A stretch of 64,000 nt of DNA from the NCBI GenBank assembly GCA_947589095.1, contig CANQBX010000008.1, forward strand, positions 2,949 through 66,948, in the 5' to 3' direction. Source of the stretch: an uncultured Lachnospiraceae bacterium. GTDB taxonomy: Bacteria > Bacillota > Clostridia > Lachnospirales > Lachnospiraceae. The position numbers and the translations under genes are program-made. Below the pieces are notes generated by a model. It saw only the letters and a program-made list of their open reading frames with translations, was not told where the DNA came from and did no database searches. This document shows positions 40,737 through 64,000 of this stretch, piece by piece; position 1 is the stretch's first letter, and each line of letters starts with the position of its first letter.

Positions 40737-41765
40737 TCAATCTGCGGGCAGGCCGCTGTGATAGGAATAGTTTCCTAATTCTTCTATAATATCGGTGAAA
40801 TCGGTCTCCTCCGATACGGTGTCGGGGGAGATCTTTTTGTGCTCTTTCATAAGCTCCGGCGATGGATTCTGCCGCGCGATGAGCCGGAGCGCGATCAGGG
40901 AATACACGGTATTGCATCGCGCGAGGGCCTGGTGGAACAGATCCATAAAGGAAGCGTCGGAGGCGAGACGGCGGTCCCAGGGGTTGGACCAGGTCTCGTG
41001 ATCCAGGTTCAGGCTCCGGCGGGGATCGATCACCCGGTCGGTTACGATCTTGCGGGAGATTACGGGATTTTTGAGGAAAATGGATTCCATAAATTCCACC
41101 CGGTTCCGCTTATGGCCGGACGGATCCGCCAGGGTGCGGCAGCCGAAGCGCAGGGCCAGAATGGAACGGTGGATCATCCGCGGCGTCACCTGGAAATTAT
41201 TTTCACAGGTGATCGGATAGTAGGTGATATTGATACAGTCGCAGAGAAACCGGGAGATGAACTGCATCTCTTGGGGATTTAAGCAGATCGTGGCCGCCTG
41301 GTTAAATTCCGAAGGCTTTTTCTTTTTGTATTTCTGAAGCAGAAGGGCGTCGATCTCGTTTTCCAGCTGCGCGTGGAGGCCGTGAAGCCTGACCTCCGGC
41401 CGGTCAGCGTCATAATGGATCCGTCCGTAGACGAAGGGATGGCAAATGGAATCGCAGATGTAATGGCAGACGTAGCCGCAGAAGTAGGCGACGGCCTGCT
41501 CCCGCTGCTGGCGCGACCGGATTTGCAGGGTCTCCTGTATGTAGGTGACGAAAAAATCACGCACATGGTGCTCATGCATATAGGAACCCACATTGCGGTA
41601 ATCGCGGTGACGCAGGATCGGCAGGTTGTAGAAGAACATATCCGGTCCTTGCAGGCCCAGCTGGTAGAGCCAGCGGTATTTGGCGATGATGTGCTTAAGC
41701 GGTGTGGAGGGAAGGTCATTGTATGCCTTCATTCCGAAGATGTAGTGCGTAGTAAAGCCGGGCAT
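40737..41765 (-). CDS. Zinc-dependent phospholipase C family protein
   Basis: MPGFTTHYIFG, GLQGPDMFFY, GYVCHYICDSICHPFV, HAQLENEID. Confidence 0.88.
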   Translation of the reverse strand: MPGFTTHYIFGMKAYNDLPSTPLKHIIAKYRWLYQLGLQGPDMFFYNLPILRHRDYRNVGSYMHEHHVRDFFVTYIQETLQIRSRQQREQAVAYFCGYVCHYICDSICHPFVYGRIHYDADRPEVRLHGLHAQLENEIDALLLQKYKKKKPSEFNQAATICLNPQEMQFISRFLCDCINITYYPITCENNFQVTPRMIHRSILALRFGCRTLADPSGHKRNRVEFMESIFLKNPVISRKIVTDRVIDPRRSLNLDHETWSNPWDRRLASDASFMDLFHQALARCNTVYSLIALRLIARQNPSPELMKEHKKISPDTVSEETDFTDIIEELGNYSYHSGLPAD

Positions 41766-51978: not shown

Positions 51979-52018
51979 CCCTTTTGATTATATGCGGAAT
52001 TGGGGGAAATGATAAGGA

Positions 52019-52063
52019 ATCTATAAGTTAATGTTGACTTATAGATTTATATTGTTGTATACT
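52019..52063 (+). promoter_or_regulatory. Promoter TTGACT-N18-TATACT overlapped by a perfect 10-bp palindromic operator
   Basis: ATCTATAAGT (52019-52028) - 8 nt - ACTTATAGAT (52037-52046) covers the -35 box (52034-52039). Confidence 0.7.
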
Positions 52064-52091
52064 TTAAAAAATGAATATGGAGGAGAATGCT

Positions 52092-53597
52092 ATGAAGAAG
52101 ATGATATCTGTTGTATTAGCAGCTGCATTAGTCCTGAGCGTTGCAGCATGTGGTACGTCTGGAAACGTGCCGTCTCAGGAGAGCACAAGCGGTGTGTCAG
52201 AAGAAGTGTCTTCCTCGGAGAGTGAAAGCGCTGAAGCCGAGCAATTGCAGACGACAGTGGCCGAGCAGAGCGAAAACGATGATGTTGATCAACCGCAGAC
52301 TACGGTTTCCGAACAAAACGAAACCGCTAAGCCGGACACGCCGGCGAACGAAGATACTTTGCCGGAATTTCAAAAGGAAGCGACAATTACCGAAACCATT
52401 CTTTATGACGAGAACGATGTACGGATCATAGCTACGGATCTTACTTATAACAATTATGCCGCAGAATTGGCCGTGACAATTGAAAATAATTCAGACAAGG
52501 ATCTTGACTTTATAAGTAACTCGGCGGGTTATAGCTGCAATTCTGTCAACGGATATATGATTGAAGACGGTTATATGAACTGTGATGTTGCCGCAGGGAA
52601 AAAGGCGAAGGATACGATCTCGATCAGTTATAATACGCTGATGCTGTACGGAATTTTTGAAATTGCCGATCTGGAGGTTGGCTTTTCCATTACGGATGAT
52701 GATTATAACCGCATTTATACCGGATCATGCCAGATCATGACAAGCGCGGCCGATCAGCATGATTATCAAAAGGAGTATTATAAAGAAGCGATTGTCAGTG
52801 CTGCCGCACAGAATAATTTTGGCTATACGGTTCCTTATTTTTCAGACGAGCCGTTGTATGACCAGGATGGATTTGCAATTGTCTCCAGCACAATCATGAT
52901 GAATGGGGATGGGGAAGACATGCTGCTTCTGGAGGTTAAAAATACTACGGAGAAAACGGTTAATGCGGTTACGAGCGATATTTGTATTAATGGACTGGGC
53001 ATATATGGCTCGACTTGGTCTTCAGATACTATTAATCCCGGAAACACAGCGATCGTTGTCCTCGATCTGTCCAGACTGCTGAACAATGATTATCGCGATG
53101 TTTATGGCGTTCAGGATGTTGGAACGGTTGACCTGACCATGAAATTCGAGGATGTAGATGGGGAAGAAGTGGGATCCCCGGCGGAGATTACCGTAGAGAA
53201 TCCGAATGTCGAACCATCCTTCAGTAAGGAAGGCCAGGAGGTATATAATGCGAACGATATTCGGATCGTCATGAAGGATATCGTGGAAGACAGTTCGGAA
53301 TACAGTAAGGATATGTATATTCTGCTTCTGGCAGAGAATAACGGCACCGAACCGGTTACACTTCGCGGTGCATACGATTCCTTTTCTTTAAATGGGTATA
53401 TGATGAGTTTCTATATGAATCAAGTACCTATAAAGGGCGGAGATTCCGCAATGTTGGAGATCTATTTAATGGAATCTGATCTTGAGGAAAACTCGATTGC
53501 AGAGATTTCCGATATCACGCAGATGGAGATGGAGATCGAGATTATGCAGGAGTACAATACGATTGATACGGCGAAACTTGTTGTGGATTTCAATTGA
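52092..53597 (+). CDS. Large acidic lipoprotein with three repeated beta-sandwich-like modules
   Basis: Lipobox VAAC; GGAGGAG RBS; repeats (LYDENDVRII...IENNSDK / LYDQDGFAIV...VKNTTEK / VYNANDIRIV...AENNGTE). Confidence 0.85.
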   Translation: MKKMISVVLAAALVLSVAACGTSGNVPSQESTSGVSEEVSSSESESAEAEQLQTTVAEQSENDDVDQPQTTVSEQNETAKPDTPANEDTLPEFQKEATITETILYDENDVRIIATDLTYNNYAAELAVTIENNSDKDLDFISNSAGYSCNSVNGYMIEDGYMNCDVAAGKKAKDTISISYNTLMLYGIFEIADLEVGFSITDDDYNRIYTGSCQIMTSAADQHDYQKEYYKEAIVSAAAQNNFGYTVPYFSDEPLYDQDGFAIVSSTIMMNGDGEDMLLLEVKNTTEKTVNAVTSDICINGLGIYGSTWSSDTINPGNTAIVVLDLSRLLNNDYRDVYGVQDVGTVDLTMKFEDVDGEEVGSPAEITVENPNVEPSFSKEGQEVYNANDIRIVMKDIVEDSSEYSKDMYILLLAENNGTEPVTLRGAYDSFSLNGYMMSFYMNQVPIKGGDSAMLEIYLMESDLEENSIAEISDITQMEMEIEIMQEYNTIDTAKLVVDFN

Positions 53598-53662
53598 GGG
53601 GAGTAATTGTCAGGGCGTAGATTTGTTAGTTTGGGCATATCTGTCAATGAGATGTGTATTCT

Positions 53663-53702
53663 AAAAAAAGAGAGGTGGCTGTCAGACGGTCGCCTCTCTT
53701 TC
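53663..53702. terminator. Strong bidirectional terminator at the edge of the AT-rich block
   Basis: AAAAGAGAGGTGGCTGTC-A-GACGGTCGCCTCTCTTTT. Confidence 0.8.
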
Positions 53703-53826
53703 GAAGGTTAATAACATCATTCAGTAGCAGTGTGTCGCATAAGCAGGATAAATCATTTGTCAGTAGAGATTAAAAACGCAAACCAGATCAAATATATAAT
53801 TTGATACACATATCACGAGGTTAAAA

Positions 53827-54414
53827 ATGAAACTGATTAAATTTGATTGTAATAATTGTGGCGCTCAACTTGAAATGGATTTAGATAATTTGCAAGTGTA
53901 TTGCCCATATTGTGGACAGAAATTGCTTATTGATATTGATCAAGTAGATCACATACTAGTGGCACGAGAGGAAACAAAGCAAGCACAAGAAAAAACCAAA
54001 CGTTTTCAAATCGCGCAAGATTATAAAGATAAGAAAGATCGCAGAGATCATTGTTCTGACGCTTTCCGAACTGCCGGGATGTTCATTATTCTAATTTTTT
54101 GTTATGCGTATATATTTTTTATGGGCCATAACGAGAGAAAGAGTCATCAAGCAAATAATGATATTCAAATATCGGTATCTTCCGATGATCTAAAAGAAGA
54201 AGATATAGATAGTGTTGTCAGAATTCTTGAAAATTGTGGATTCAAGACTATTAACACAGTTAATGCGAAGGACTTGGTATTTGGCTTCTTGTCCAAAGAA
54301 AACGAAATCGACACTGTTGCTATCAATGGGGATAAAGAGTTTGACAAAGGCGACTGGTTCCCACAAGATGCAGTAGTTACCATTACTTACCATGGATTTC
54401 CTGACAAAGAATAA
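53827..54414 (+). CDS. Zinc-ribbon + TM + PASTA-like domain membrane protein
   Basis: CNNCGA...CPYCG; coiled segment; one TM; C-terminal LENCGFKTI...VAINGDKEFDKGDWFPQDAVVTITYH. Confidence 0.78.
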   Translation: MKLIKFDCNNCGAQLEMDLDNLQVYCPYCGQKLLIDIDQVDHILVAREETKQAQEKTKRFQIAQDYKDKKDRRDHCSDAFRTAGMFIILIFCYAYIFFMGHNERKSHQANNDIQISVSSDDLKEEDIDSVVRILENCGFKTINTVNAKDLVFGFLSKENEIDTVAINGDKEFDKGDWFPQDAVVTITYHGFPDKE

Positions 54415-54773
54415 TAAAGACGGCAAAATGTGTTGTCTTTATTTATCCCGAAGGACTTAAACGTGAAACTTAAATGAGGCAGGTAGTCAAAAAAGTGTAT
54501 CACAAGCAAGCTTTTCATAGGTGGTGTTTGCGGATGACATCAGTAGATATTGATAACAAAATCTGATGGTTAGTGATACTGTGGCAGCGCAGAATAAAAC
54601 AAATTTGGGGGATGAACGTCAGTCATGAATTGAAAATCAGTTTAGTCCATGGGACGGACGGCATAAAGAATTATGCGAGTTGTTTAGGCAAACTAATTTG
54701 ATAAATACGGGAAGTCTTTGTTGATATTCGATAAAATCAGCAATATGATAAACGCAGACTTAATTCTGTCAGA

Positions 54774-55961
54774 ATGACAAGAGAGGAAAAATATGCCATG
54801 AAAATAATGGGGAACGTACTTGTTATTGGAAATTCCGGCGTCGGTAAGTCAACTCTGATTAATGCGGTGCTAGGAGATAATCGTGCGGAGACAGGTTTTG
54901 GCGTGAAAGGAACAACAAACAAACTTTCTATTTATGAAAGCAAAGAATTGCCATTCCGCATTATTGATACGATAGGCTTTGAACCTTCGTGGCTCAAGGA
55001 AAGACAGGCAATCCGAGCGGTCAAAAAATGGTCAGCCGATAGCAGCAAGAAAGGGAAAGAGGATACGCAGATTAATGTGATATGGTTCTGCGTTGAAGGA
55101 ACTTCAAGCAAACTGTTTCCCAAGTCCATCAAGGATCTCTCGCGTGCTACCTCTATGTGGCCTACAGTACCGCTTATTGTGGTAATAACAAAATCATATT
55201 CCGTACCGGATCGCGAGGAGAATAAAAAGATGGTATATAGCGCGTTCGCCTCGCAGAAACGTTATGGAAAAAATCTACGAGAAGTGATACCTGTGGTGGC
55301 TGCGACATATACGCTTAATGAGCAAGCTTTTGCCGCGCCTGAAGGAATTCAGGAATTGATTACAGTGACCAACGATCTGCTTCCAGAGGGAGTTAAGGCT
55401 GCGCAGGATGATGTACATGCGTTTACTCTTAAGCGCAAGCAGACATTTGCACAAAGCATTGTCGGTACAACTGCGGCAGCGGGAGTTGTGGTGGGCGCTA
55501 TTCCGATTCCATTTTCGGATGCTGCCTTGCTGGGGCCGGTGGAAGTCGGAGAAGTGAACGCCCTGGCAAGAATCTATGGAGTTAATAAAAATGAATCCGC
55601 AAAAGAACTTTTGAATTCCATTATAGAAGTCGGAACAGTCGGAGCTGCAGCGAAAACTCTTATAAGTGCATTGAAGGCGATTCCAGGTCTGAATATCGGA
55701 GTAGCATTGTTGAATTCGATAATAGCCGGTTGTATTGTGGCGGCGTTGGGAGAAGCCAGTAATTATATTTTTATACAAATATATAATGGCGAAAAGTCTG
55801 CGGAGGATATTGACTGGGCAAAAAGGATTGTGGAGTCCAGACTGGCCAATCAGACACTTGAAAAAGTGATACAGATTCTTGATAAGATCAAAAAGGAGAA
55901 TCTTAATAAGGATGCCATTGTGAAACTAATCGTGTCGGTATTTTTCCAGAAAGCATCATAA
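54774..55961 (+). CDS. P-loop GTPase with a C-terminal YcjF/DUF697-like hydrophobic domain
   Basis: G1 GNSGVGKSTLIN, G3 IIDTIG, G4-like ITKS; AIPIPFSDA motif. The start may be ATG 54798. Confidence 0.85.
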   Translation: MTREEKYAMKIMGNVLVIGNSGVGKSTLINAVLGDNRAETGFGVKGTTNKLSIYESKELPFRIIDTIGFEPSWLKERQAIRAVKKWSADSSKKGKEDTQINVIWFCVEGTSSKLFPKSIKDLSRATSMWPTVPLIVVITKSYSVPDREENKKMVYSAFASQKRYGKNLREVIPVVAATYTLNEQAFAAPEGIQELITVTNDLLPEGVKAAQDDVHAFTLKRKQTFAQSIVGTTAAAGVVVGAIPIPFSDAALLGPVEVGEVNALARIYGVNKNESAKELLNSIIEVGTVGAAAKTLISALKAIPGLNIGVALLNSIIAGCIVAALGEASNYIFIQIYNGEKSAEDIDWAKRIVESRLANQTLEKVIQILDKIKKENLNKDAIVKLIVSVFFQKAS

Positions 55962-56079
55962 GGGGATAACGATTCATGACCCCCTTTATTCGATGACGCT
56001 GAACGAATTATTCACCGACCAGCTGTCATGGAAAAGAGCGTATACTCAGATAAATAAAAAGTACGGAACAAGGTATGAA

Positions 56080-56104
56080 TGAACCGCTCCCCGTCAAGTA
56101 GACA
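56080..56104 (-). mobile_element. Solo IS3-family (IS150-like) terminal inverted repeat; IS scar
   Basis: TGAACCGCTCCCCGTCAAGTAGACA resembles, from memory, IS3-family ends in Firmicutes. No partner repeat or transposase ORF was found. Confidence 0.45.
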
Positions 56105-56202
56105 ATCAAAAAAGTGTTGCCGGAACTTACTTGTCAACCGGAGTGCCTATGGCTGAGCCCTTAAGTATTCCTGCGCATTTCTTAACTAGATGAAAGGTTT
56201 AT

Positions 56203-56718
56203 TTATTTTAACTTTTCTTTTTCAGCATTTAATAGCTCAATATTAAGATTATTTTCGCTGGCGGTTTTATTAACCCACAGATTTAATGAGTCGATAGCCA
56301 GAGATACTTCGTCAAGTTTTTTACTGATGTAGGCGAAGTCTTTGATTTCATCATCTGTAATTTTTCCATCTCTCGCTATCTGGATCAAACGAATGGTTAA
56401 GGGATTGATCTCATTTAAACTGGCGATTGTTTCCAAAATGATATTGGACAATTCGGATACCTCAACTTCCGGAACGTAACGATCCCCAATTGTACATTTA
56501 TGGGAGCAATAGTAATTACAAAGGTCCGGTCTTTTATAGCAGTCAGCCATTTGAATGATGTCATACGGAGTTGGCTCCTGCAGTTCATATTCGATTTTTT
56601 CGATTCTGGAAGCAGATACCCCTGCCATCATTTCACTTGCTTTTTCGCGGGTAAGGCCCTGGGCTTCCCGACATAACTGATATATATTTTTGTTTTCTCT
56701 TGTTGATTGCTTTCCCAT
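56203..56718 (-). CDS. XRE-family HTH regulator with a C-terminal helical domain
   Basis: Start at MGKQSTRENKNIYQLCREAQGLTREKASE; SRIEKIEYE HTH. The upstream part of the track ORF overlaps another gene. Confidence 0.85.
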   Translation of the reverse strand: MGKQSTRENKNIYQLCREAQGLTREKASEMMAGVSASRIEKIEYELQEPTPYDIIQMADCYKRPDLCNYYCSHKCTIGDRYVPEVEVSELSNIILETIASLNEINPLTIRLIQIARDGKITDDEIKDFAYISKKLDEVSLAIDSLNLWVNKTASENNLNIELLNAEKEKLK

Positions 56719-56869
56719 TGATAGTACCCCTTTATCTCTCAAAACCCGAGAAATACATATGTTTAAGTCCTCGCTTTGAAGGTGTATTTCTGCCTTCGGT
56801 ACAATTATACTAAAAACAAAAAAAAACAGCAAGGATAAGTTGTAACCAGAGGAGATGATACATGCAAAG

Positions 56870-57010
56870 ATGGATGCAGAAAAAAGAATACAGTTAATCA
56901 AAACCATTGAAAAAATGGAAAGGAACCCGGCATTTAGTGAGAAACTGGGAATCCGGAATAAATCAGCATTGAGAACGGCGCAGGAGCGAAAGGAGAGGGA
57001 AAGATCGTGA
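56870..57010 (+). CDS. Small basic protein (46 aa), absent from the ORF track
   Basis: MDAEKRIQLIKTIEKMERNPAFSEKLGIRNKSALRTAQERKERERS; its TGA overlaps the GTG start of the exonuclease gene; alternative start at 56855. Confidence 0.55.
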   Translation: MDAEKRIQLIKTIEKMERNPAFSEKLGIRNKSALRTAQERKERERS

Positions 57011-57675
57011 AACACATTGTAATTGATCTGGAGATGAATACGTTGGACAAGAAGTTTAAGGATGAAAGAATAATTTGCGGAAGTGAGATTATCCAAATAG
57101 GAGCGGTGCTGCTGGATGAACAATATCAGGAGATCGGATCTTTTAATACGCTTGTAAAGCCTCAATATAATGAGCGGATTGAAAGGAAATTCGAGAGATT
57201 AACCGGCATTACGACAGAAATGGTTCAGAATGCCCCTGTTTTTTCAGAAGCAATCGGACAGTTCCTTTCCTGGTGCCGCAGCATAAGAGATGATATTCAA
57301 ATTTATCAGTGGAGTGAATCTGATTATGAACAAATCGCAAAGGAATTAGTATTAAAAAGAATCTGTTTGGCCCCAGAAGACAAAGAACTACTAAAGGGAT
57401 TTCAAGACTTTCAAAAAGAATACGGCGAGACACTTGGACTGTCTAAAGCGGTGTCGTTGAAAGATGCAGTAATGTATGCAGGAGTAGATTTCTCCGGGAA
57501 AGAACATGATGCTTTGGATGACGCGAAAAACACAGCTTCTTTATTGAGAATCGTTAGAATTCCGGAGCTCTGCAATATGGCACTCGAAAATGTGATCGAT
57601 GCATTCCAAACAAAGCCAATAGGAACCTCACTTGGCGATTTATTACATTTTGATGAGTTGGGCATACCGGCATAA
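57007..57675 (+). CDS. DEDDh 3'-5' exonuclease
   Basis: IDLEMN (ExoI), EIIQIGAV, WSESD (ExoII), HDALDDA (ExoIII). Confidence 0.92.
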   Translation: MKHIVIDLEMNTLDKKFKDERIICGSEIIQIGAVLLDEQYQEIGSFNTLVKPQYNERIERKFERLTGITTEMVQNAPVFSEAIGQFLSWCRSIRDDIQIYQWSESDYEQIAKELVLKRICLAPEDKELLKGFQDFQKEYGETLGLSKAVSLKDAVMYAGVDFSGKEHDALDDAKNTASLLRIVRIPELCNMALENVIDAFQTKPIGTSLGDLLHFDELGIPA

Positions 57676-57693
57676 AGAGGGGGAAGGAGAAAC

Positions 57694-57909
57694 GTGTTAT
57701 CACTGATATTTGCAATTTGCATGATATGGATATTTGGTAAATTATTAATTTTTGGGATCAAAGCCGCCTGGAGCATCTCGAAGTTCCTGGTAACGATTGT
57801 ATTGCTGCCTCTGGTGCTGATCGGGATGGTTATGGGCGGATTGATATACATAGCGTTTCTTATTTTAATCATAGTGGGAATTATAGCGCTGGTTCCATTC
57901 AAAGGGTAA
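57694..57909 (+). CDS. Small hydrophobic membrane protein (71 aa)
   Basis: Almost entirely hydrophobic; GGAAGGAG RBS; GTG start. Confidence 0.75.
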   Translation: MLSLIFAICMIWIFGKLLIFGIKAAWSISKFLVTIVLLPLVLIGMVMGGLIYIAFLILIIVGIIALVPFKG

Positions 57910-58184
57910 CCTCAGAATAAGGGGATTAAACGTTGCTAAGGTTTTTGTTTGGTCACTTAAATTTATACCCAAATTGACCAGGATTCCTTATTTTTTGAGA
58001 TTTTATAAAAGATGTTCACAAGTAATGAATTGCTGGTAAACAGAACTGTGGAAACTCAAGAAAGACACTACTTTATTTTCCTTTGTAACTATGGTACAAT
58101 TCTTTAGGAAAGTATCAGATTCAGGGCGGACAAAAAGAGCAGCCTATATAGAAACTAAAGCTGCTCTGAATGTGATTCTTTCCA

Positions 58185-58353
58185 ATTGTACCAAGCCGCG
58201 GAACTATTTTCTGATAATTCTTATATGGAATTCGTATTTATTCGAGCTCAATTCGAAGAATTGTCAGAAAATACATCGGTGAACTTGTTATGCACATAAT
58301 ATATCACAATGATGTAAAGTTGGCAAGCCGCCGCGCTAGCGGCTTGGTACAAT
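58185..58353 (+). other. Multi-stem palindromic element upstream of the toxin operon
   Basis: Outer 15-bp inverted repeat (58185-58199/58339-58353), inner 18-bp stem with one G-U pair (58205-58222/58256-58273) and an interrupted third stem (58272-58316). Confidence 0.6.
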
Positions 58354-58407
58354 ATTATATGTCTAATTGAATGAATAAAACAGTGCGGGAGTAGGGGGCA
58401 AATAATT

Positions 58408-60303
58408 ATGTTTCAATCTGCAAAGAGGTTTTCCATATTACTGGTTGTCGTAGCCGCGACACTATTCATACTGCCGATGAAAGCGTTTGCAGAGGATGGA
58501 AAGGTAGAACTCTCAGGTTTGATGTATGAGTTTGATAAAGACAATCACTATGATATTTTCGAAAGTGATTCTGTTTCGACGACAGACAGCGATTACACCT
58601 ACGGAACATTTTTTATCAATGGGGAAATAACTGCTACAAGCGAGAAATCTGGCATTCTATCTTACGAAGTTGGCAACGGAAACTTGGAATTTTACTACAA
58701 TTACGGAGATACCTTGCTCAATGTGGACGAAGACTCTTGGCATCTTGTAGATGACAAGAGCAAAAAAGTAGCCGGTAAGGAATTAGACTCTAACATTATG
58801 AAGGGTGCAATTATTTTGCAGACCTCTAAGGATCAAAAGAATTGGATAGATGAAAAAACTATTTGCAATGCATTCAGCGATGTCCCTATCCGAACAAGTT
58901 CAATTTACTCTACAACTGATGTACAATTGATTAATGGCTGTTATTACAGACTTGTAGTAGTATATGAACTCGCTAAGAAGATTGAAGACAGAAATTTCTT
59001 GTTCATTAACACTGACAAGTATGATTACAAAAAATGTGCCGAGGTTTATGAATTCTATGCTTGTGCCGATGGCGGCGAGGTTAATGCCATTGACCTTAGT
59101 CAGACATATAGCCTTGGATCGAGAGTAAAAGTAAAAAATTTTGATGGTTACTTCGGCGAAGAATTGATTGATAAAAATGACGTCCATTACGGTTGGGAAC
59201 TTGGCAACTTTTTTGTCAGCGGATATACAGATGAGGTGACAAGTTCCGATGGGAACATAGTATTTCTCAAGAATGTTGGAGATAAAGTTACTCTTTGGTT
59301 TAAGCTTGACCAAGATATCAATTGTTTGAATGGCAAGAAAAACTTATCTATTACCGCTGATACAGAAGGGTATGATCAGTACTTTGAAACTTCGAAAATG
59401 GATTTTGGACATGGTGTTCTGATTATTCGTTACACTGACCATAACAATGTAAAGGCAACACCTACTATCTACACAAATTATCTTGAAGCCAATGCAGTTG
59501 TCGGTGCAGATACCAAAGTCCAGTTGTTCGAGGAGGGTGATTATGAGGTTGCCCTTGATTACGAGGTTACAAAAAACGAGTTGATCGACAAAATCGGACA
59601 CTACCGCATATTCTTTAAATTCTCTGTTCGCAATGGTAACTGCATGGTTTATCCCTTTGATGTTCGGACGGGTAGTGAGCTAACAAGCAGTTCTTTGACC
59701 GAAAATGGGTTCCGTTTGGACTTGGCTAAGTCCAGATATTTGAAAATCAATATCAAAAGGGAAATACTGACAGACAGTGCTGATGGACTTATCGAAGATA
59801 CCCGTTTCAACGGTTCCACGAAGGATGGCGCTGAGTATACTGAAGAGGGCATTTATACTATCACTGTTAACAACGAATATACGGGACAGGTTACTACAAA
59901 GAAGATTTATGTTGGAACAAACAATATTCTTCGGGCCCACATGACTACTGGCCTGTCTATCCCAGAAATCAACGATCTTGTTGCAGAAGGAGCGACAATT
60001 TCTGAGGATGGAACAATTCAACCTGCGGCTGTGATTCCTGTTGAGGAGTCAGCAGGGCCGGAGCAGAAAGATTCGGATACATCTTCTGCTTCTGGTGTTG
60101 ATGTTCCGGTGAGCGGGGCAATAAATACTAATTCGGGAAATGCTGAATCAGACGAAAAGTTTTTCCCAATCGCTGCAATTGTTGGAGTAATTATCTGTAT
60201 CTTTGCTATAGTTGTTGTATTTGTCATAAAAAAGAAGGAAAAACAACCAGCTAAAGCTGATAATAGCTATCATGATGAAACTAAAGAGGATATAGAACAA
60301 TGA
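58408..60303 (+). CDS. Large secreted beta-rich protein with a C-terminal TM anchor
   Basis: Signal peptide ending MKAFA; acidic Ser-rich stalk; TM FFPIAAIVGVIICIFAIVVVFVI followed by KKKEK; no LPxTG. Confidence 0.85.
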   Translation: MFQSAKRFSILLVVVAATLFILPMKAFAEDGKVELSGLMYEFDKDNHYDIFESDSVSTTDSDYTYGTFFINGEITATSEKSGILSYEVGNGNLEFYYNYGDTLLNVDEDSWHLVDDKSKKVAGKELDSNIMKGAIILQTSKDQKNWIDEKTICNAFSDVPIRTSSIYSTTDVQLINGCYYRLVVVYELAKKIEDRNFLFINTDKYDYKKCAEVYEFYACADGGEVNAIDLSQTYSLGSRVKVKNFDGYFGEELIDKNDVHYGWELGNFFVSGYTDEVTSSDGNIVFLKNVGDKVTLWFKLDQDINCLNGKKNLSITADTEGYDQYFETSKMDFGHGVLIIRYTDHNNVKATPTIYTNYLEANAVVGADTKVQLFEEGDYEVALDYEVTKNELIDKIGHYRIFFKFSVRNGNCMVYPFDVRTGSELTSSSLTENGFRLDLAKSRYLKINIKREILTDSADGLIEDTRFNGSTKDGAEYTEEGIYTITVNNEYTGQVTTKKIYVGTNNILRAHMTTGLSIPEINDLVAEGATISEDGTIQPAAVIPVEESAGPEQKDSDTSSASGVDVPVSGAINTNSGNAESDEKFFPIAAIVGVIICIFAIVVVFVIKKKEKQPAKADNSYHDETKEDIEQ

Positions 60304-61535
60304 AAAAAATAATCGCGCTCTTTCTTAGCGTTATAATGGTTCTTACTGGTTGTGTGCAAACAACGCCACAGGAATCTACTTCCAGCGAGGGGAACAATGC
60401 TCAAGAAACAACAGAGCCTGTAGATCCTATTGAATGGGAAAATGTGGAACCACAATACACTTCACTGGATGATGAGGAACTTCTTGCCCATATTGAGGAC
60501 TTAGTTTACCATGATACAGTCGTCTCCCTCAACAGTAAGGAATATTTTGTTGAAAATGTATCTGCTATTTATATCTCAAAAGAATACCTTGATGAGGTGG
60601 CATTCAATTCCCAGTCAAATATTTACTTTGGCTATACGCTGGCAGAATTAGATGACATATTCCATGGCACAAAATACATCTTTGCATTAAGTGATAGCGG
60701 AACAACTACTGTTCAGGAACTTCAAGAGATTGAGGATACCTCAACCGAAACAATGCTTAAAAATGTAGCTATCGGGTCAGGTGTAATTCTGGTTTGTGTG
60801 ACGGTATCTGTCGTGACTGCAGGCACAGCAGCTCCGGCGGTGAGCATGATATTCGCAGCATCCGCAAAGACCGCAGCAACCTTTGCCATTTCATCTGCGG
60901 TATTCGGCGGTATCTCTGCCGGCATCGTAAGAGGCATTCAGACCGGAGACTTCGACGAAGCCATGAAAGCTGCTGCTATGGAGGCAACAGAAGGTTTCAA
61001 GTGGGGAGCTATCAGCGGAGCAGTTGTTGGTGGTAGTAGTGAAGCATTCCTGTTGAAATCTGCTACCCGAAATGGTCTGACCATGAATGAGGCGGCTATT
61101 ATACAAAAAGACTCCGGTCTTCCAGTAGATATTATCTCACAGATGCACAGCATAAAAGAATATGAAATATACAAAGATGCCGGATTAAAAACGATGGTGG
61201 TAGATGGCAGGACAGCCCTTGTCCAGCAAATTGATTTAAACTATGTCAGTCAACTTCCTGACGGAACAGAAGTAACGAATCTTGTGCGGATGCAAGATGG
61301 ATATCCGCCACTTGACCCAGTAACAGGAAAGGCATATGAATTGCACCATATGGGACAAAAAGATAATGGAGTACTTGCTATTTTGACACAGGAACAACAC
61401 CGGGGAAAAGGGAATATGAAAGTTTTGCATGATATATTGAATGATTCTGGAGTTGATCATGGAACAGAATGGAAAAAAACTGTTTCAAGTTTTTGGAAAT
61501 ATCTTGGAAATTATTATGCCAAGGGAGGCGTATAA
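60300..61535 (+). CDS. Lipoprotein with a C-terminal LHH (HNH/EndoVII-fold) nuclease toxin domain
   Basis: Lipobox LTGC; Gly/Ala-rich hydrophobic middle; TNLVRMQDGYPP...YELHHMGQK...LAILTQEQH...LH...FWK matches the LHH pattern; ATGA-coupled to the upstream gene. Confidence 0.88.
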   Translation: MKKIIALFLSVIMVLTGCVQTTPQESTSSEGNNAQETTEPVDPIEWENVEPQYTSLDDEELLAHIEDLVYHDTVVSLNSKEYFVENVSAIYISKEYLDEVAFNSQSNIYFGYTLAELDDIFHGTKYIFALSDSGTTTVQELQEIEDTSTETMLKNVAIGSGVILVCVTVSVVTAGTAAPAVSMIFAASAKTAATFAISSAVFGGISAGIVRGIQTGDFDEAMKAAAMEATEGFKWGAISGAVVGGSSEAFLLKSATRNGLTMNEAAIIQKDSGLPVDIISQMHSIKEYEIYKDAGLKTMVVDGRTALVQQIDLNYVSQLPDGTEVTNLVRMQDGYPPLDPVTGKAYELHHMGQKDNGVLAILTQEQHRGKGNMKVLHDILNDSGVDHGTEWKKTVSSFWKYLGNYYAKGGV

Positions 61536-61538
61536 AGA

Positions 61539-61925
61539 GTGAAATTTGTAGATATTATAAAGGAGATGCCGGATTACATTGGTTCAAATGGAAGAGATAA
61601 AAATACAATTGCTGAAGCAGAGAAAGAACTGGGCGTCACATTTGCGGGAGATTATCATGAATACCTAGAGAAGATTGGACTTGCATGTTTCGACGGCCAT
61701 GAGCTTACTGGTTTGACAAAAACATCTCGTCTGAATGTTGTCTCCGTAACCGTGGAGCAGCGAGAACAATTAGGTAATATTGATGCGTCGTGGTATGTCA
61801 TTGAGGAAGTGGGCATCGATGGTATTGTTATCTGGCAAAGTGCGGATGGCTCCATTTATGCAACTGCCCTAAATTCAAAAGCAAGGAAGATTGCAAACTC
61901 CCTTTCCGAGTACATTTCTAAGTAA
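61539..61925 (+). CDS. SMI1/KNR4 (SUKH) immunity protein
   Basis: IAEAEKELGVTFAGDYHEYLEKIG core motif; starts 3 nt after the toxin stop codon. Confidence 0.9.
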   Translation: MKFVDIIKEMPDYIGSNGRDKNTIAEAEKELGVTFAGDYHEYLEKIGLACFDGHELTGLTKTSRLNVVSVTVEQREQLGNIDASWYVIEEVGIDGIVIWQSADGSIYATALNSKARKIANSLSEYISK

Positions 61926-62083
61926 ACTAATTTTTACAATAGCCACAATAAATATCATTTACTGGTAAATAGCAAGTCGACTTATCATCTGCAGGTGAAT
62001 TCTTGCACGATGGGATAAACATACTGCAAGAATTAAGAATTTGTTATTGGGACAACTGGGCGATTTAGTAATGGAGGCAGACA

Positions 62084-62743
62084 ATGACATATAAAGATTT
62101 TGTTGAAGATACAATTTGTAATTTAAGCGAGCCGGTGTTTGAAGAGCTCAAACAGTTGCTGCTCGGAGAATACATATCATTCTCCATCATAGACCACGAG
62201 AATGTCACCAAAGATATTCTTGCCGAGAAGGTCTGTGATTACTTTAGTACACTTGAAATAAAAACAGGTAAGTCGTTCGATAAGCATATCGAATCCTATA
62301 TGAGTGGCTTGGATTCCATCGTGGGTCCGCATATTGCCAAAACGCCACAGGCTAAAAAGGGCGATAAGACACTTATTGTTGATTCCCGTCCCCGGTCAAG
62401 GAAGTACTACGATAAGGTTATTACTACCAAAGGGGTTAAAAATCCATCCCTGACTCAACTGGTTGATTATTCCAGGATTATGATGTGCCTGTATACTGCG
62501 GCAATCAAAAATAGAGATAACCCTATAGATAATTTCGATTATGCGTCAAAATGTCTTGCTCCGGTGAGCATCGTTGATGCCATGAAAAGCGAGGAGATTT
62601 CGATTGTGCATACTCGTTTAAAGAAGAAACGGTTTGACATGAAGGATCTATATAGCGATGACGTGTGCACGTTGATTTTGTCGATATTGATTCTTTTCTC
62701 AATTATCAACGGAAAAGTAGAAGGAGAAACCGATCATGAGTGA
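62084..62743 (+). CDS. Hypothetical protein (219 aa)
   Basis: GGAGG RBS; hydrophobic C-terminal segment; stop overlaps the next start. Confidence 0.75.
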   Translation: MTYKDFVEDTICNLSEPVFEELKQLLLGEYISFSIIDHENVTKDILAEKVCDYFSTLEIKTGKSFDKHIESYMSGLDSIVGPHIAKTPQAKKGDKTLIVDSRPRSRKYYDKVITTKGVKNPSLTQLVDYSRIMMCLYTAAIKNRDNPIDNFDYASKCLAPVSIVDAMKSEEISIVHTRLKKKRFDMKDLYSDDVCTLILSILILFSIINGKVEGETDHE

Positions 62744-63773
62744 TATGCTAGTTATAGAGACTTGGGAGCAACTAAAGGCATTCTTGAATGAAAAAGGCGT
62801 GATGGAAATTGTGGTCAGGAACAAGAACAAGCGGTTCAAAGCTTTTCAGAAGGTCATGATCAGCAATCTTCCGGAAACACAAGAAAAGGAGCTTGCTCAG
62901 AAAGTCATTGATATACTCAATAAGAATACGCAGATGAATGAGCGGAACCTGAATCTTCTGGGTAATGTGGCAAAACTGGAAGAAATCGGAATGCTATTGA
63001 ACGGCCTGAACCTATGTGCTACCTGTGCCGGTTTTGCAATTATGTACGCGAAGCTGGATGCCATGAGTTCAGAAATCAATCAACAACTATACCAACTCGA
63101 GAAAACAGTAAAGCAGACTCAGGATATCCAGAATGATTACGAGTTTAAAAAAGTGCTCGCGGAGCATACAGATATGCTGGATAGCCAGCGCAGACAGCAG
63201 CCTTATTCTGAAGGGAAAATGCGTGAACTTGTCGACCGAGAGTATAATGTCCTGATGCTTCTGATCAGTTCTTTCCGAAAGGATATCTCAGGAGATAAAA
63301 GAGCATTGATCTTTTCAATCTTTTCAATGCTTGCGATGTTCACGGCGTCACTGCGTTATTTTGACGAATTGTATTATTTCAATAATCGTCAAGTACTGGG
63401 AGAAAAGAACGCGTGGCATCTGTCCCACGAAAAATGGATGAGCGTATATGACGAGTTATCCTCTGAATGGTTTATCGAAAAGCTGCAGGATTATGGAATG
63501 TTCGATACAAAGTTATCAACTCTGGAGGTCGACATTTACTACATAAGTTTGATGGATCAGGTAGCTGACCTGAGAAGTGAAATAGAAGATAATCAGGCAT
63601 TGATTATTGCCCTGGGGGACGATGAGCTTTTCAGAAAAGTTAAAGAAATGAATGCAAAGGAAATCGCTGATTCCATTGAGTCAGCATACAGAGAAGCCGG
63701 CAGCGATTTGGCTGAGGAAACCGTCATAGCAGCGTATCAGAACGGAATGCAGCAGGCGGCAATGGCGGCGTGA
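62736..63773 (+). CDS. Hypothetical helical protein with a central hydrophobic segment and coiled coils
   Basis: AAGGAG RBS; LLNGLNLCATCAGFAIMYAKL followed by a heptad-like region. Confidence 0.78.
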   Translation: MSDMLVIETWEQLKAFLNEKGVMEIVVRNKNKRFKAFQKVMISNLPETQEKELAQKVIDILNKNTQMNERNLNLLGNVAKLEEIGMLLNGLNLCATCAGFAIMYAKLDAMSSEINQQLYQLEKTVKQTQDIQNDYEFKKVLAEHTDMLDSQRRQQPYSEGKMRELVDREYNVLMLLISSFRKDISGDKRALIFSIFSMLAMFTASLRYFDELYYFNNRQVLGEKNAWHLSHEKWMSVYDELSSEWFIEKLQDYGMFDTKLSTLEVDIYYISLMDQVADLRSEIEDNQALIIALGDDELFRKVKEMNAKEIADSIESAYREAGSDLAEETVIAAYQNGMQQAAMAA

Positions 63774-63784
63774 GGTGATCAATT

Positions 63785-64000
63785 ATGGATATTTCCGTCA
63801 AGAATGCTTTTGATAAGCTTATAAAAGCGTGTGAACGTATAGATTCTCTCCAGCAAAAACAAAAAAGAGGGTTATCCCTGAAAAGACTTCTCGCAGAGGA
63901 TATTCATGCCTTTATATGTCTGATCTCAAAATCCGGGGCAGAAGAAAGATATAGCTACTTTAATGAAGTATACCAAGGCGGAGCCTACCCGTCTTCTGAA
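63785..64000 (+). CDS. Hypothetical protein, truncated by the window end
   Basis: GAGGTG RBS; MDISVKNAFDKLIKACERIDSLQQ... is open for 72 codons to the edge. Confidence 0.7.
   Translation, partial: MDISVKNAFDKLIKACERIDSLQQKQKRGLSLKRLLAEDIHAFICLISKSGAEERYSYFNEVYQGGAYPSSE

Follow-up and report, generated by a model that had tools for sequence, protein, structure and literature searches.

Can three adjacent genes, with no secretion machinery encoded beside them, make up a complete system by which a monoderm bacterium attacks its neighbors? The question is raised by a locus in a 64,000-nucleotide stretch of DNA (the window hereafter; assembly GCA_947589095.1, contig CANQBX010000008.1, positions 2,949 to 66,948) from an uncultured Lachnospiraceae bacterium. 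The locus encodes a surface protein (the partner), a candidate toxin with a nuclease domain at its C-terminus, and a putative immunity protein, in that order. Lachnospiraceae are monoderm, which agrees with an initial annotation of this stretch that was made from the letters alone. Following up that annotation computationally, we consider the locus to be, probably, a self-contained three-gene polymorphic toxin-immunity cassette of Clostridia, in which the toxin would be displayed by the partner and would act on neighboring cells.

Organization and Conservation of the Cassette

The open reading frames (ORFs) of the partner and toxin overlap by an ATGA at 60300-60303, as read directly. The toxin ORF (411 amino acids, aa) and the immunity ORF (128 aa) are separated by 3 nt (61536-61538), and a GGAGG precedes the GTG start of the latter. 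In the toxin, Pfam LHH (PF14411) was matched at aa 326-402 with an E-value of 2.1e-17 (63.5 bits; cut-off 23.3). The 128-aa protein scored above the Pfam cut-offs of SUKH_5 (49 bits; cut-off 27), SUKH_6 (38 bits; 27), and SMI1_KNR4 (28.6 bits; 25.4). The 631-aa partner had no match over cut-off in Pfam, NCBIfam, PHROG, or PADLOC, and in Pfam it gave only sub-threshold transmembrane (TM) noise. NCBIfam, PADLOC, and PHROGs returned nothing over cut-off for the cassette trio, and in Pfam the cassette proteins had no LXG, WXG, or RHS match. The initial annotation had described three genes in close coupling (two sharing an ATGA, and a gap of 3 nt), a 631-aa protein bearing a signal peptide and TM anchor, a toxin with a lipobox and a Gly/Ala-rich hydrophobic middle, an LHH C-terminus followed by a SUKH/SMI1 protein, and no LXG, WXG, or RHS motif. 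That description stands in all of these parts: the ORFs are all on the plus strand with the overlap and gap as described, the Pfam matches exceed their cut-offs, the lipobox reads LTGC, hydropathy confirms the hydrophobic middle, and the partner has a signal-like N-terminal helix and a TM segment at aa ~585-607.

The same arrangement recurs widely. A pattern-seeded survey, capped at 80 loci, was made, and neighboring ORFs were clustered. Only the partner (78 loci), the toxin (79), and the immunity gene (58) were conserved among them. A partner homolog lies directly 5′ of the toxin gene in 78 of the 80 loci, whatever the tip of the toxin, and contig ends truncate the remaining two. For 80 independent loci, 78 occurrences of the trio are far more than chance would give. 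The overlap between partner and toxin genes is often ATGA across loci. A fourth conserved gene was considered (a GTPase/DUF697 gene, a WYL regulator, or a gene for a 71-aa membrane protein) and rejected; further neighbor clusters occur in at most 6 of the 80 loci.

Scans for promoters and terminators gave no more than shuffled sequence would, and Rfam had no match in 57600-62300. A GC-rich hairpin, CAAGCCGCCGCGCTAGCGGCTTG, is present at 58300-58350, approximately 60 nt 5′ of the partner start in an AT-rich leader; it has no Rfam match. The gene of a WYL-domain regulator overlaps the partner start by an ATGA in some loci (L003-L006, 7117-8118; L010; L062, 2853-3809), an arrangement that gives a hint that the cassette responds to stress or damage.

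Exchangeable Tips and Matching Immunity Genes

Full-library HMMER searches with toxin aa 1-320 (E ≤ 1e-3) found 655 clusters at the 50% identity level. When the best 150 of these 655 clusters were aligned to the whole toxin, about 44 lost homology sharply at aa ~245-265, and the tails past this breakpoint are unrelated and 120-190 aa long. LHH tips are the majority among the representatives, and other classes are WHH (Pfam E 4e-14), AHH (6e-11), a barnase-type Ribonuclease (4e-11), and several singletons. A large class of 24-32 clusters carries the pattern RPDVV...E-x-K-N-Y...D-x-R-G; the motifs ExKNY and DxRG are those of Tox-REase-10 (PMC3482391). In the window's toxin, L348-H349-H350 and H367 are conserved, and H349, H350, H367, and N327 are invariant in an alignment of 32 toxin homologs (alignment A2). 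The PDB contains no sequence relative of the LHH tip or of the REase-10-like tip.

The downstream gene follows the tip. SUKH genes lie 3′ of LHH-tip toxins, and Imm70 genes lie 3′ of REase-10-like tips (Pfam E 4e-13 and 2e-16; L055 and L062). Both the LHH/SUKH and the REase-10/Imm70 pairings have been tabulated previously (PMC3482391). Among 37 LHH loci, tip identity and immunity identity were correlated when the conserved N-terminal part of the toxin (the N-module) was controlled for (partial r 0.48, permutation p 0.001), and N-module and tip were nearly uncoupled (rho 0.13); these tests were run on related sequences and are liberal, so the values are supportive and are not to be taken as probabilities. 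The initial annotation had predicted swapped tips, matching immunity genes, and a conserved upstream partner among homologs, and the survey found all three.

These patterns make it well supported, from sequence comparison, that the toxin belongs to a polymorphic toxin/immunity family that recombines at a fixed junction. The family has the predicted hallmarks of polymorphic toxins, namely a conserved N-terminal region joined to unrelated tips, downstream immunity genes matched to the tip, and an export signal. The exported nuclease could also be read as a housekeeping enzyme tethered to the surface, with an intracellular inhibitor as a safeguard, like NucA/Nin of B. subtilis or barnase/barstar. 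It would then serve extracellular DNA/RNA breakdown for nutrition, biofilm remodeling, or the blocking of DNA uptake, with no delivery into cells. An exported nuclease followed by a gene for a cytoplasmic inhibitor is the architecture expected of such an enzyme, one of the tip classes is a barnase-type RNase, and no transfer machinery is encoded. However, LHH, WHH, AHH, and REase-10 tips are exchangeable and largely restricted to polymorphic toxins (PMC3482391), and they are paired with catalogued immunities (SUKH and Imm70) in such a way that tip and immunity co-vary. A scavenging nuclease needs neither a conserved hydrophobic module nor an obligatory partner. Pfam gave no DNase_NucA_NucB match, and LHH was the only family matched in the nuclease part. 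We consider the housekeeping role improbable.

The N-Module and the Route of Export

The N-module covers the first ~255 aa of the toxin and has three conserved parts. The toxin begins with MKKIIALFLSVIMVLTGC, which contains a lipobox with Cys18; NCBIfam gave only weak lipoprotein-signal matches for this segment. The signal is followed by a small extracellular domain, predicted to be alpha/beta, and by a Gly/Ala/Ser-rich hydrophobic region (Table 1). In an alignment of 20 diverse N-modules (alignment A3), S93, Y96, N103, N107, F110, and G111 of the small domain are invariant or nearly so. The hydrophobic region comprises, in order, a strong helix at aa 156-176, a weaker stretch around a conserved lysine (Lys190), and the motifs GIxTGD and SEGFKWGAIxG. 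The Kyte-Doolittle mean over 19 aa reaches 2.1 at aa 151-181 and is 1.1-1.4 at aa 178-214. The lipobox Cys, the two-motif domain, the hydrophobic region with Lys190, and the GIxTGD and SEGFKWGAIxG motifs are common to the 20 N-modules.

Relatives of the N-module were confirmed in 306 genomes by a pattern scan of one genome per species, and nearly all of these are Clostridia. Carriers include Lachnospiraceae, Oscillospiraceae, Ruminococcus, Butyrivibrio, Anaerococcus, and Peptoniphilaceae. A few relatives are on short contigs binned outside Clostridia, and these may be mis-binned mobile DNA. A strict lipobox is present in 70 of 79 loci, and three of the nine misses have near-lipoboxes (CTGC, LDGC, and TTSC). 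In one small subclade (L048, L069, L077, L080, and L086), an ordinary cleavable signal peptide replaces the lipobox; therefore, a lipid anchor is typical (~90%) and not essential. The description "lipoprotein-tethered" in the initial annotation is accurate for the typical member, but it cannot be extended to the whole family, given the signal-peptide subclade and the fusions without a lipobox described below.

It was also considered at the outset that the N-terminus might map to a known trafficking domain, and no Pfam, PT-TG, LXG, MAFB-N, RHS, or PDB relative was found for it. The 20 diverse N-modules had no Pfam match over cut-off. PT-TG (PF14449) was not matched in the window's toxin at E ≤ 0.1, and PT-TG, LXG, and MAFB-N were absent at E ≤ 5 among the 25 listed of the 33 families matched by the 20 N-modules. 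Searches of the N-module profile against the PDB found no relative, only signal-peptide or compositional matches. Weak matches to DUF6386 (in 8 of the 20 members, each of them under the cut-off) and to phrog_342 (on the Gly-rich region, E 0.009) were dismissed as compositional or not significant.

The source genome has Lgt and two LspA genes. This genome is 97.6% complete and has no WXG100 or LXG match, and WXG100 was not matched in 4 of 10 other carrier genomes. Clustering of the neighbors in the 80 loci linked no ATPase, channel, or other machinery gene to the cassette. The simplest reading for the toxin is Sec/lipoprotein export, with predicted lipidation by Lgt/LspA at Cys18. As judged by these marker searches, the cassette is independent of type VII secretion system (T7SS) markers.

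The Partner Protein

The partner consists of a signal peptide (aa 1-28), an optional N-domain (~35-225), a core (~232-540), a low-complexity linker (541-584), a TM segment (~585-607), and a charged tail. The domain limits were set with an alignment of 26 diverse partner homologs (alignment A4), in which invariant columns occur only in aa 258-535. The N-domain is missing from a size class of 420-520 aa. Mean pairwise identity is 0.50 in the core and 0.39 in the N-domain. Partner alignments searched against the PDB gave only signal-peptide or compositional matches. Taken with the searches above, the N-module and the partner are putative new families that are in neither Pfam nor the PDB.

The initial annotation had proposed the partner as a display or delivery protein, and three independent lines support this proposal. 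The first is the synteny in 78 of 80 loci. The second is co-variation, as partner divergence tracks the toxin N-module (rho 0.57) and not the tip (-0.04). The third is natural gene fusion. At least five 50%-identity clusters (P0258, P0272, P0344, P0368, and P0354) are in-frame fusions of the partner ectodomain to the toxin. They keep partner aa ~220-537 and enter the toxin at aa ~50, so that the partner TM segment and the toxin lipobox are both gone. This Rosetta-stone pattern argues that partner and toxin act together, on the outer face of the membrane. It also argues that the toxin's hydrophobic region can serve as a membrane anchor. The partner is thus predicted to be a membrane-anchored ectoprotein that is one functional unit with the toxin N-module.

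One of the fusions, P0354, is 1297 aa long. It starts with a zinc-ribbon-like region, which is followed by the partner N-domain in duplicate, the core of the partner, the toxin's N-module, and a tip of the REase-10-like type. No signal peptide is obvious in it, and its topology is puzzling.

Proposed Mechanism

In the mechanism that we propose for the cassette, the toxin would be exported by Sec and lipidated by Lgt/LspA at Cys18. The hydrophobic region would form a two-helix hairpin in which aa 156-176 pass from outside to inside, Lys190 lies inside, and aa ~191-210 return to the outside. Such a hairpin would leave the N-domain, and likewise the nuclease tip, on the outside of the producer cell, where the partner would hold or present the toxin on the surface. 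Contact, release, or transfer in vesicles would bring the toxin to a neighboring monoderm cell. Entry would then be mediated by the hydrophobic region, which would insert in the target membrane, by the helical pre-domain (aa 255-325), or by both, and would help the tip to reach the cytoplasm, where the nuclease would degrade target DNA unless a matching immunity protein is present. The cytoplasmic SUKH protein would be the cognate immunity to the LHH tip. Carried as it is on mobilizable elements and islands, the cassette would also favor cells that keep the element.

A more specific version is that the partner and the N-module form a minimal T7SS-independent delivery device, in which the ectoprotein docks on a neighboring cell and the hairpin leaves the producer membrane, either directly or by way of vesicle or membrane exchange, and inserts in the target membrane to bring interchangeable nuclease tips to the cytoplasm. 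We offer this version tentatively and regard it as doubtful. Which of contact, vesicle transfer, or release would deliver the toxin is purely a matter of inference.

Several points weigh against a displayed toxin that acts on neighbors. Toxicity, neutralization by SUKH, surface exposure, and transfer are all predicted properties, and the correlation tests that link tip to immunity are liberal. No orphan tip or immunity arrays were found beside the 80 loci, unlike many contact-dependent inhibition (CDI) and Rhs loci. The partner N-domain is only modestly more variable than the core, and therefore the partner shows no sign of a hypervariable recognition domain. Structure models made with AlphaFold2 (AF2) add little. 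They were built from alignments of 32 close homologs, and a deeper alignment would probably do better. Their mean predicted local distance difference test (pLDDT) score is 43 for the partner and 55 for the toxin, and pLDDT is below 50 for the N-module and most of the partner. Foldseek searches of the PDB with the partner and toxin models gave nothing significant (best E 9.5e-3 at a TM-score of 0.10, and E 0.3). The partner model is confident only for aa 410-540, and the toxin tip has pLDDT 62-93 over aa 255-411. The only fold hint in these models is of possible generic beta-sandwich modules.

Membrane topology is the chief weakness, since only aa 156-176 of the toxin are strongly hydrophobic. 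Were this the only helix to span the membrane, the nuclease tip would lie on the cytoplasmic side of the producer, and a module acting inside the producer would gain weight. In such a module, for element addiction or abortive infection, SUKH would hold the tip in the cell's own cytoplasm, and loss of the element, or an envelope or phage signal received through the partner and the external domain, would free it. The single evident helix fits this explanation, as do the carriage on mobile elements, the island with defense-like genes (JukB-like, IetA-like AAA, and DEDDh exonuclease), and the WYL or XRE regulators 5′ of the cassette in some loci. Nevertheless, a hairpin that places the conserved Lys190 inside fits the second, weaker stretch around this residue, and PADLOC matched none of the three proteins. 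A Sec/lipobox signal with an extracellular domain and an ectoprotein partner is also the layout of exported polymorphic toxins and not of toxin-antitoxin modules (PMC3482391). We give producer-internal action a slim chance, and display on the surface with action on neighbors remains the probable role of the cassette.

Comparison With Known Systems

Type VI secretion system (T6SS) effectors with prePAAR/Rhs architecture (Tse6-type) have a hydrophobic Gly-rich segment before the tip, which is proposed to insert in the target membrane and aid translocation. The cassette toxin resembles them in having a hydrophobic Gly-rich membrane segment ahead of a nuclease or enzyme tip. However, these effectors belong to other machinery and another phylum and are not homologous to the toxin, and what the segment does in the cassette is inferred.

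The closest parallel in organization is MafA/MafB/MafI of Neisseria (PMC3482391; PMC4287609), which is also a three-gene unit without a dedicated secretion machine. In both, a non-polymorphic surface partner is encoded 5′, next comes a toxin that is exported by Sec and joins a conserved, lineage-specific N-domain to a polymorphic tip, and a cognate immunity is encoded 3′. However, the cassette has no MAFB-N/DUF1020 Pfam match and no sequence relation to the Maf proteins. The lipoprotein of the Maf system is the partner MafA, whereas the cassette has a lipoprotein toxin and a TM-anchored partner. The cassette also differs in its monoderm Clostridia hosts, in its conserved Gly/Ala-rich hydrophobic region, and in that no orphan cassettes were seen.

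Myxobacterial SitA proteins (PMC5562445; PMC8546572) are likewise lipobox-anchored, modular, polymorphic toxins with cytoplasmic immunity, and they are carried on mobile DNA ("infectious"). SitA needs an outer membrane and exchange mediated by TraA/TraB, whereas the Clostridia hosts have no outer membrane. The cassette is further set apart by a subclade and fusions that have no lipid anchor, and none of the searches made with the N-module and the partner related them to SitA. We place the cassette in neither the Maf nor the SitA family, as no domain in common with them was seen.

LXG/T7SSb toxins of Bacillota (PMC5555719) share with the cassette their ecological setting and an overlapping repertoire of tips and immunities (LHH/SUKH and REase-10/Imm70; PMC3482391). 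They are directed by a leaderless helical T7 targeting domain, whereas the cassette toxins have a cleavable Sec/lipoprotein signal and no LXG domain, and the source genome has no WXG100 or LXG match.

The tips and immunities thus belong to known families, and the N-module and partner are apparently undescribed. The initial annotation had suggested a possibly undescribed antagonism system. This holds for the family itself, as full-text literature searches found no description of the N-module, the partner, or a Clostridial lipoprotein polymorphic toxin family, but the general kind of system is known from MafA/MafB of Neisseria (PMC3482391).

Genomic Setting and Mobility

The source genome is 4.1 Mb in size with ~57% G+C, compared with ~40% G+C in window positions 52000-64000. 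Flanks in common with a metagenome-assembled genome (MAG) of a related rabbit-gut Lachnospiraceae (L053) end at 52068 and restart at 65224, with 83-91% identity. Between these common flanks, L053 holds a 6.9-kb insert with a divergent variant of the trio (48% N-module identity). Because the shared flanks of the relative enclose a different trio variant, the cassette is placed by sequence comparison in a 13-kb variable island at a reused chromosomal hotspot. No relaxase or recombinase was found in the window's island, and no direct repeats of at least 11 nt were found at its borders. The right flank of the island has an AAA_14/DUF4143 ATPase gene and then a HisS-like gene, the latter with 95% identity to the rabbit-gut Lachnospiraceae MAG and 70-80% to the Ventrimonas, Hungatella, and Enterocloster group.

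At 68-96% identity, the trio's nearest relatives fall in thousands of 90% clusters. Blautia is among the genera in which they are carried by small integrative mobilizable elements. These elements encode a Mob_Pre relaxase and a DnaG-type primase with a DUF5906/VapE helicase, together with either a Tn916-type Int/Xis pair or a serine recombinase. Homology between these elements and the window is limited to 58417-61931, plus a weak GTPase match; therefore, the trio appears to move as a discrete cassette. About three quarters of the 80 loci had no mobile-element gene within 6 kb in a crude tblastn search, which gives a lower bound for such genes.

Carriage of the closest relatives on elements that have a relaxase and a primase and no transfer apparatus of their own would suit an accessory to conjugative transfer, in which the partner would serve in mating adhesion or exclusion and the nuclease would act on DNA at the mating junction. 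Yet most loci lack a nearby mobile-element gene, to the extent that the crude search can tell, the window's island has neither relaxase nor recombinase, and neither RNase tips nor swapped immunities would be of use in DNA processing. We consider a conjugative role highly improbable.

Other genes accompany the cassette in the island. A membrane GTPase gene (MMR_HSR1 + DUF697) at 54774-55961 lies ~2.4 kb 5′ of the trio. A related GTPase gene (~34% identity; L007, 6924-8087) is directly 5′ of the trio on a Blautia mobilizable element. The GTPase gene occurs in 1 of the 80 loci and is no conserved feature of the family. Between the GTPase gene and the trio are an XRE-type helix-turn-helix (HTH) gene at 56203-57165 (minus strand) and a DEDDh/RNase T exonuclease gene at 57007-57675 (plus strand); the XRE-type ORF as listed overlaps the start of the exonuclease gene. 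The products of the genes 3′ of the cassette (window 62084-63773; L002, 10734-12146) are 219, 345, and 470 aa long. The first has no match, the second matches PADLOC JukB weakly (E 1.4e-8), and the third is an AAA+ ATPase with IetA-like matches (E 1e-10); these genes may be a defense gene set in the same island. In the high-GC host part of the window, a gene at 40737-41765 (minus strand) encodes a zinc-dependent phospholipase C family protein (Pfam E 3.9e-14).

Table 1. Coordinates of the cassette genes, their predicted domains, and the surrounding island.
Feature	Position in window	Strand	Basis
Partner gene, 631 aa	58408..60303	+	ORF list; homolog directly 5′ of toxin gene in 78/80 loci
Conserved partner core (aa ~232-540), predicted beta-rich; kept in short partners and fusions	59101..60027	+	Alignment A4; fusions
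Toxin gene, 411 aa	60300..61535	+	Start overlaps partner stop codon (ATGA)
Predicted lipoprotein signal peptide with lipobox LTGC (Cys18) at its end	60300..60353	+	Sequence; Cys18 invariant in alignment A3
Small conserved extracellular domain, predicted alpha/beta (aa ~51-150), motifs YxSKEYLxE and NSQxNIYFGY	60450..60749	+	Conservation in alignment A3
Gly/Ala/Ser-rich hydrophobic region (aa ~155-250), ending at recombination junction	60762..61049	+	Hydropathy, conservation, homology breakpoint
Variable tip (aa ~255-411): helical pre-domain, then LHH HNH/EndoVII nuclease (aa 326-402 = 61275-61505)	61062..61532	+	Pfam, alignment A2, AF2
Immunity gene, 128 aa, SUKH/SMI1-KNR4 family, without signal peptide	61539..61925	+	Pfam SUKH_5, E 6.9e-13
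Low-GC (~40% vs. ~57%) variable island carrying the cassette	52069..64000, on to window-equivalent 65223 (L002 1-12172)	.	Composition; flank comparison

Significance

Clostridia, including Lachnospiraceae, Oscillospiraceae, Ruminococcus, and their relatives, dominate the mammalian gut. The cassette is a compact and very common candidate for how gut Clostridia without a type VII system might attack competitors. According to a 2026 study of the Tde nucleases of Bacillota, most gut carriers have no associated secretion system, and the route of those nucleases is unknown (PMC13556189). The candidate design is simple, with three genes, no ATPase or channel gene, general Sec/Lgt export signals, and swappable tips and immunities. 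Its carriage on mobilizable elements crosses family boundaries. The cassette could explain strain-level exclusion in gut communities, as well as selection for keeping small mobile elements. If the delivery-device reading is true, the partner and N-module would represent an unrecognized interbacterial toxin route that is widespread in gut Clostridia and spread by mobilizable elements.

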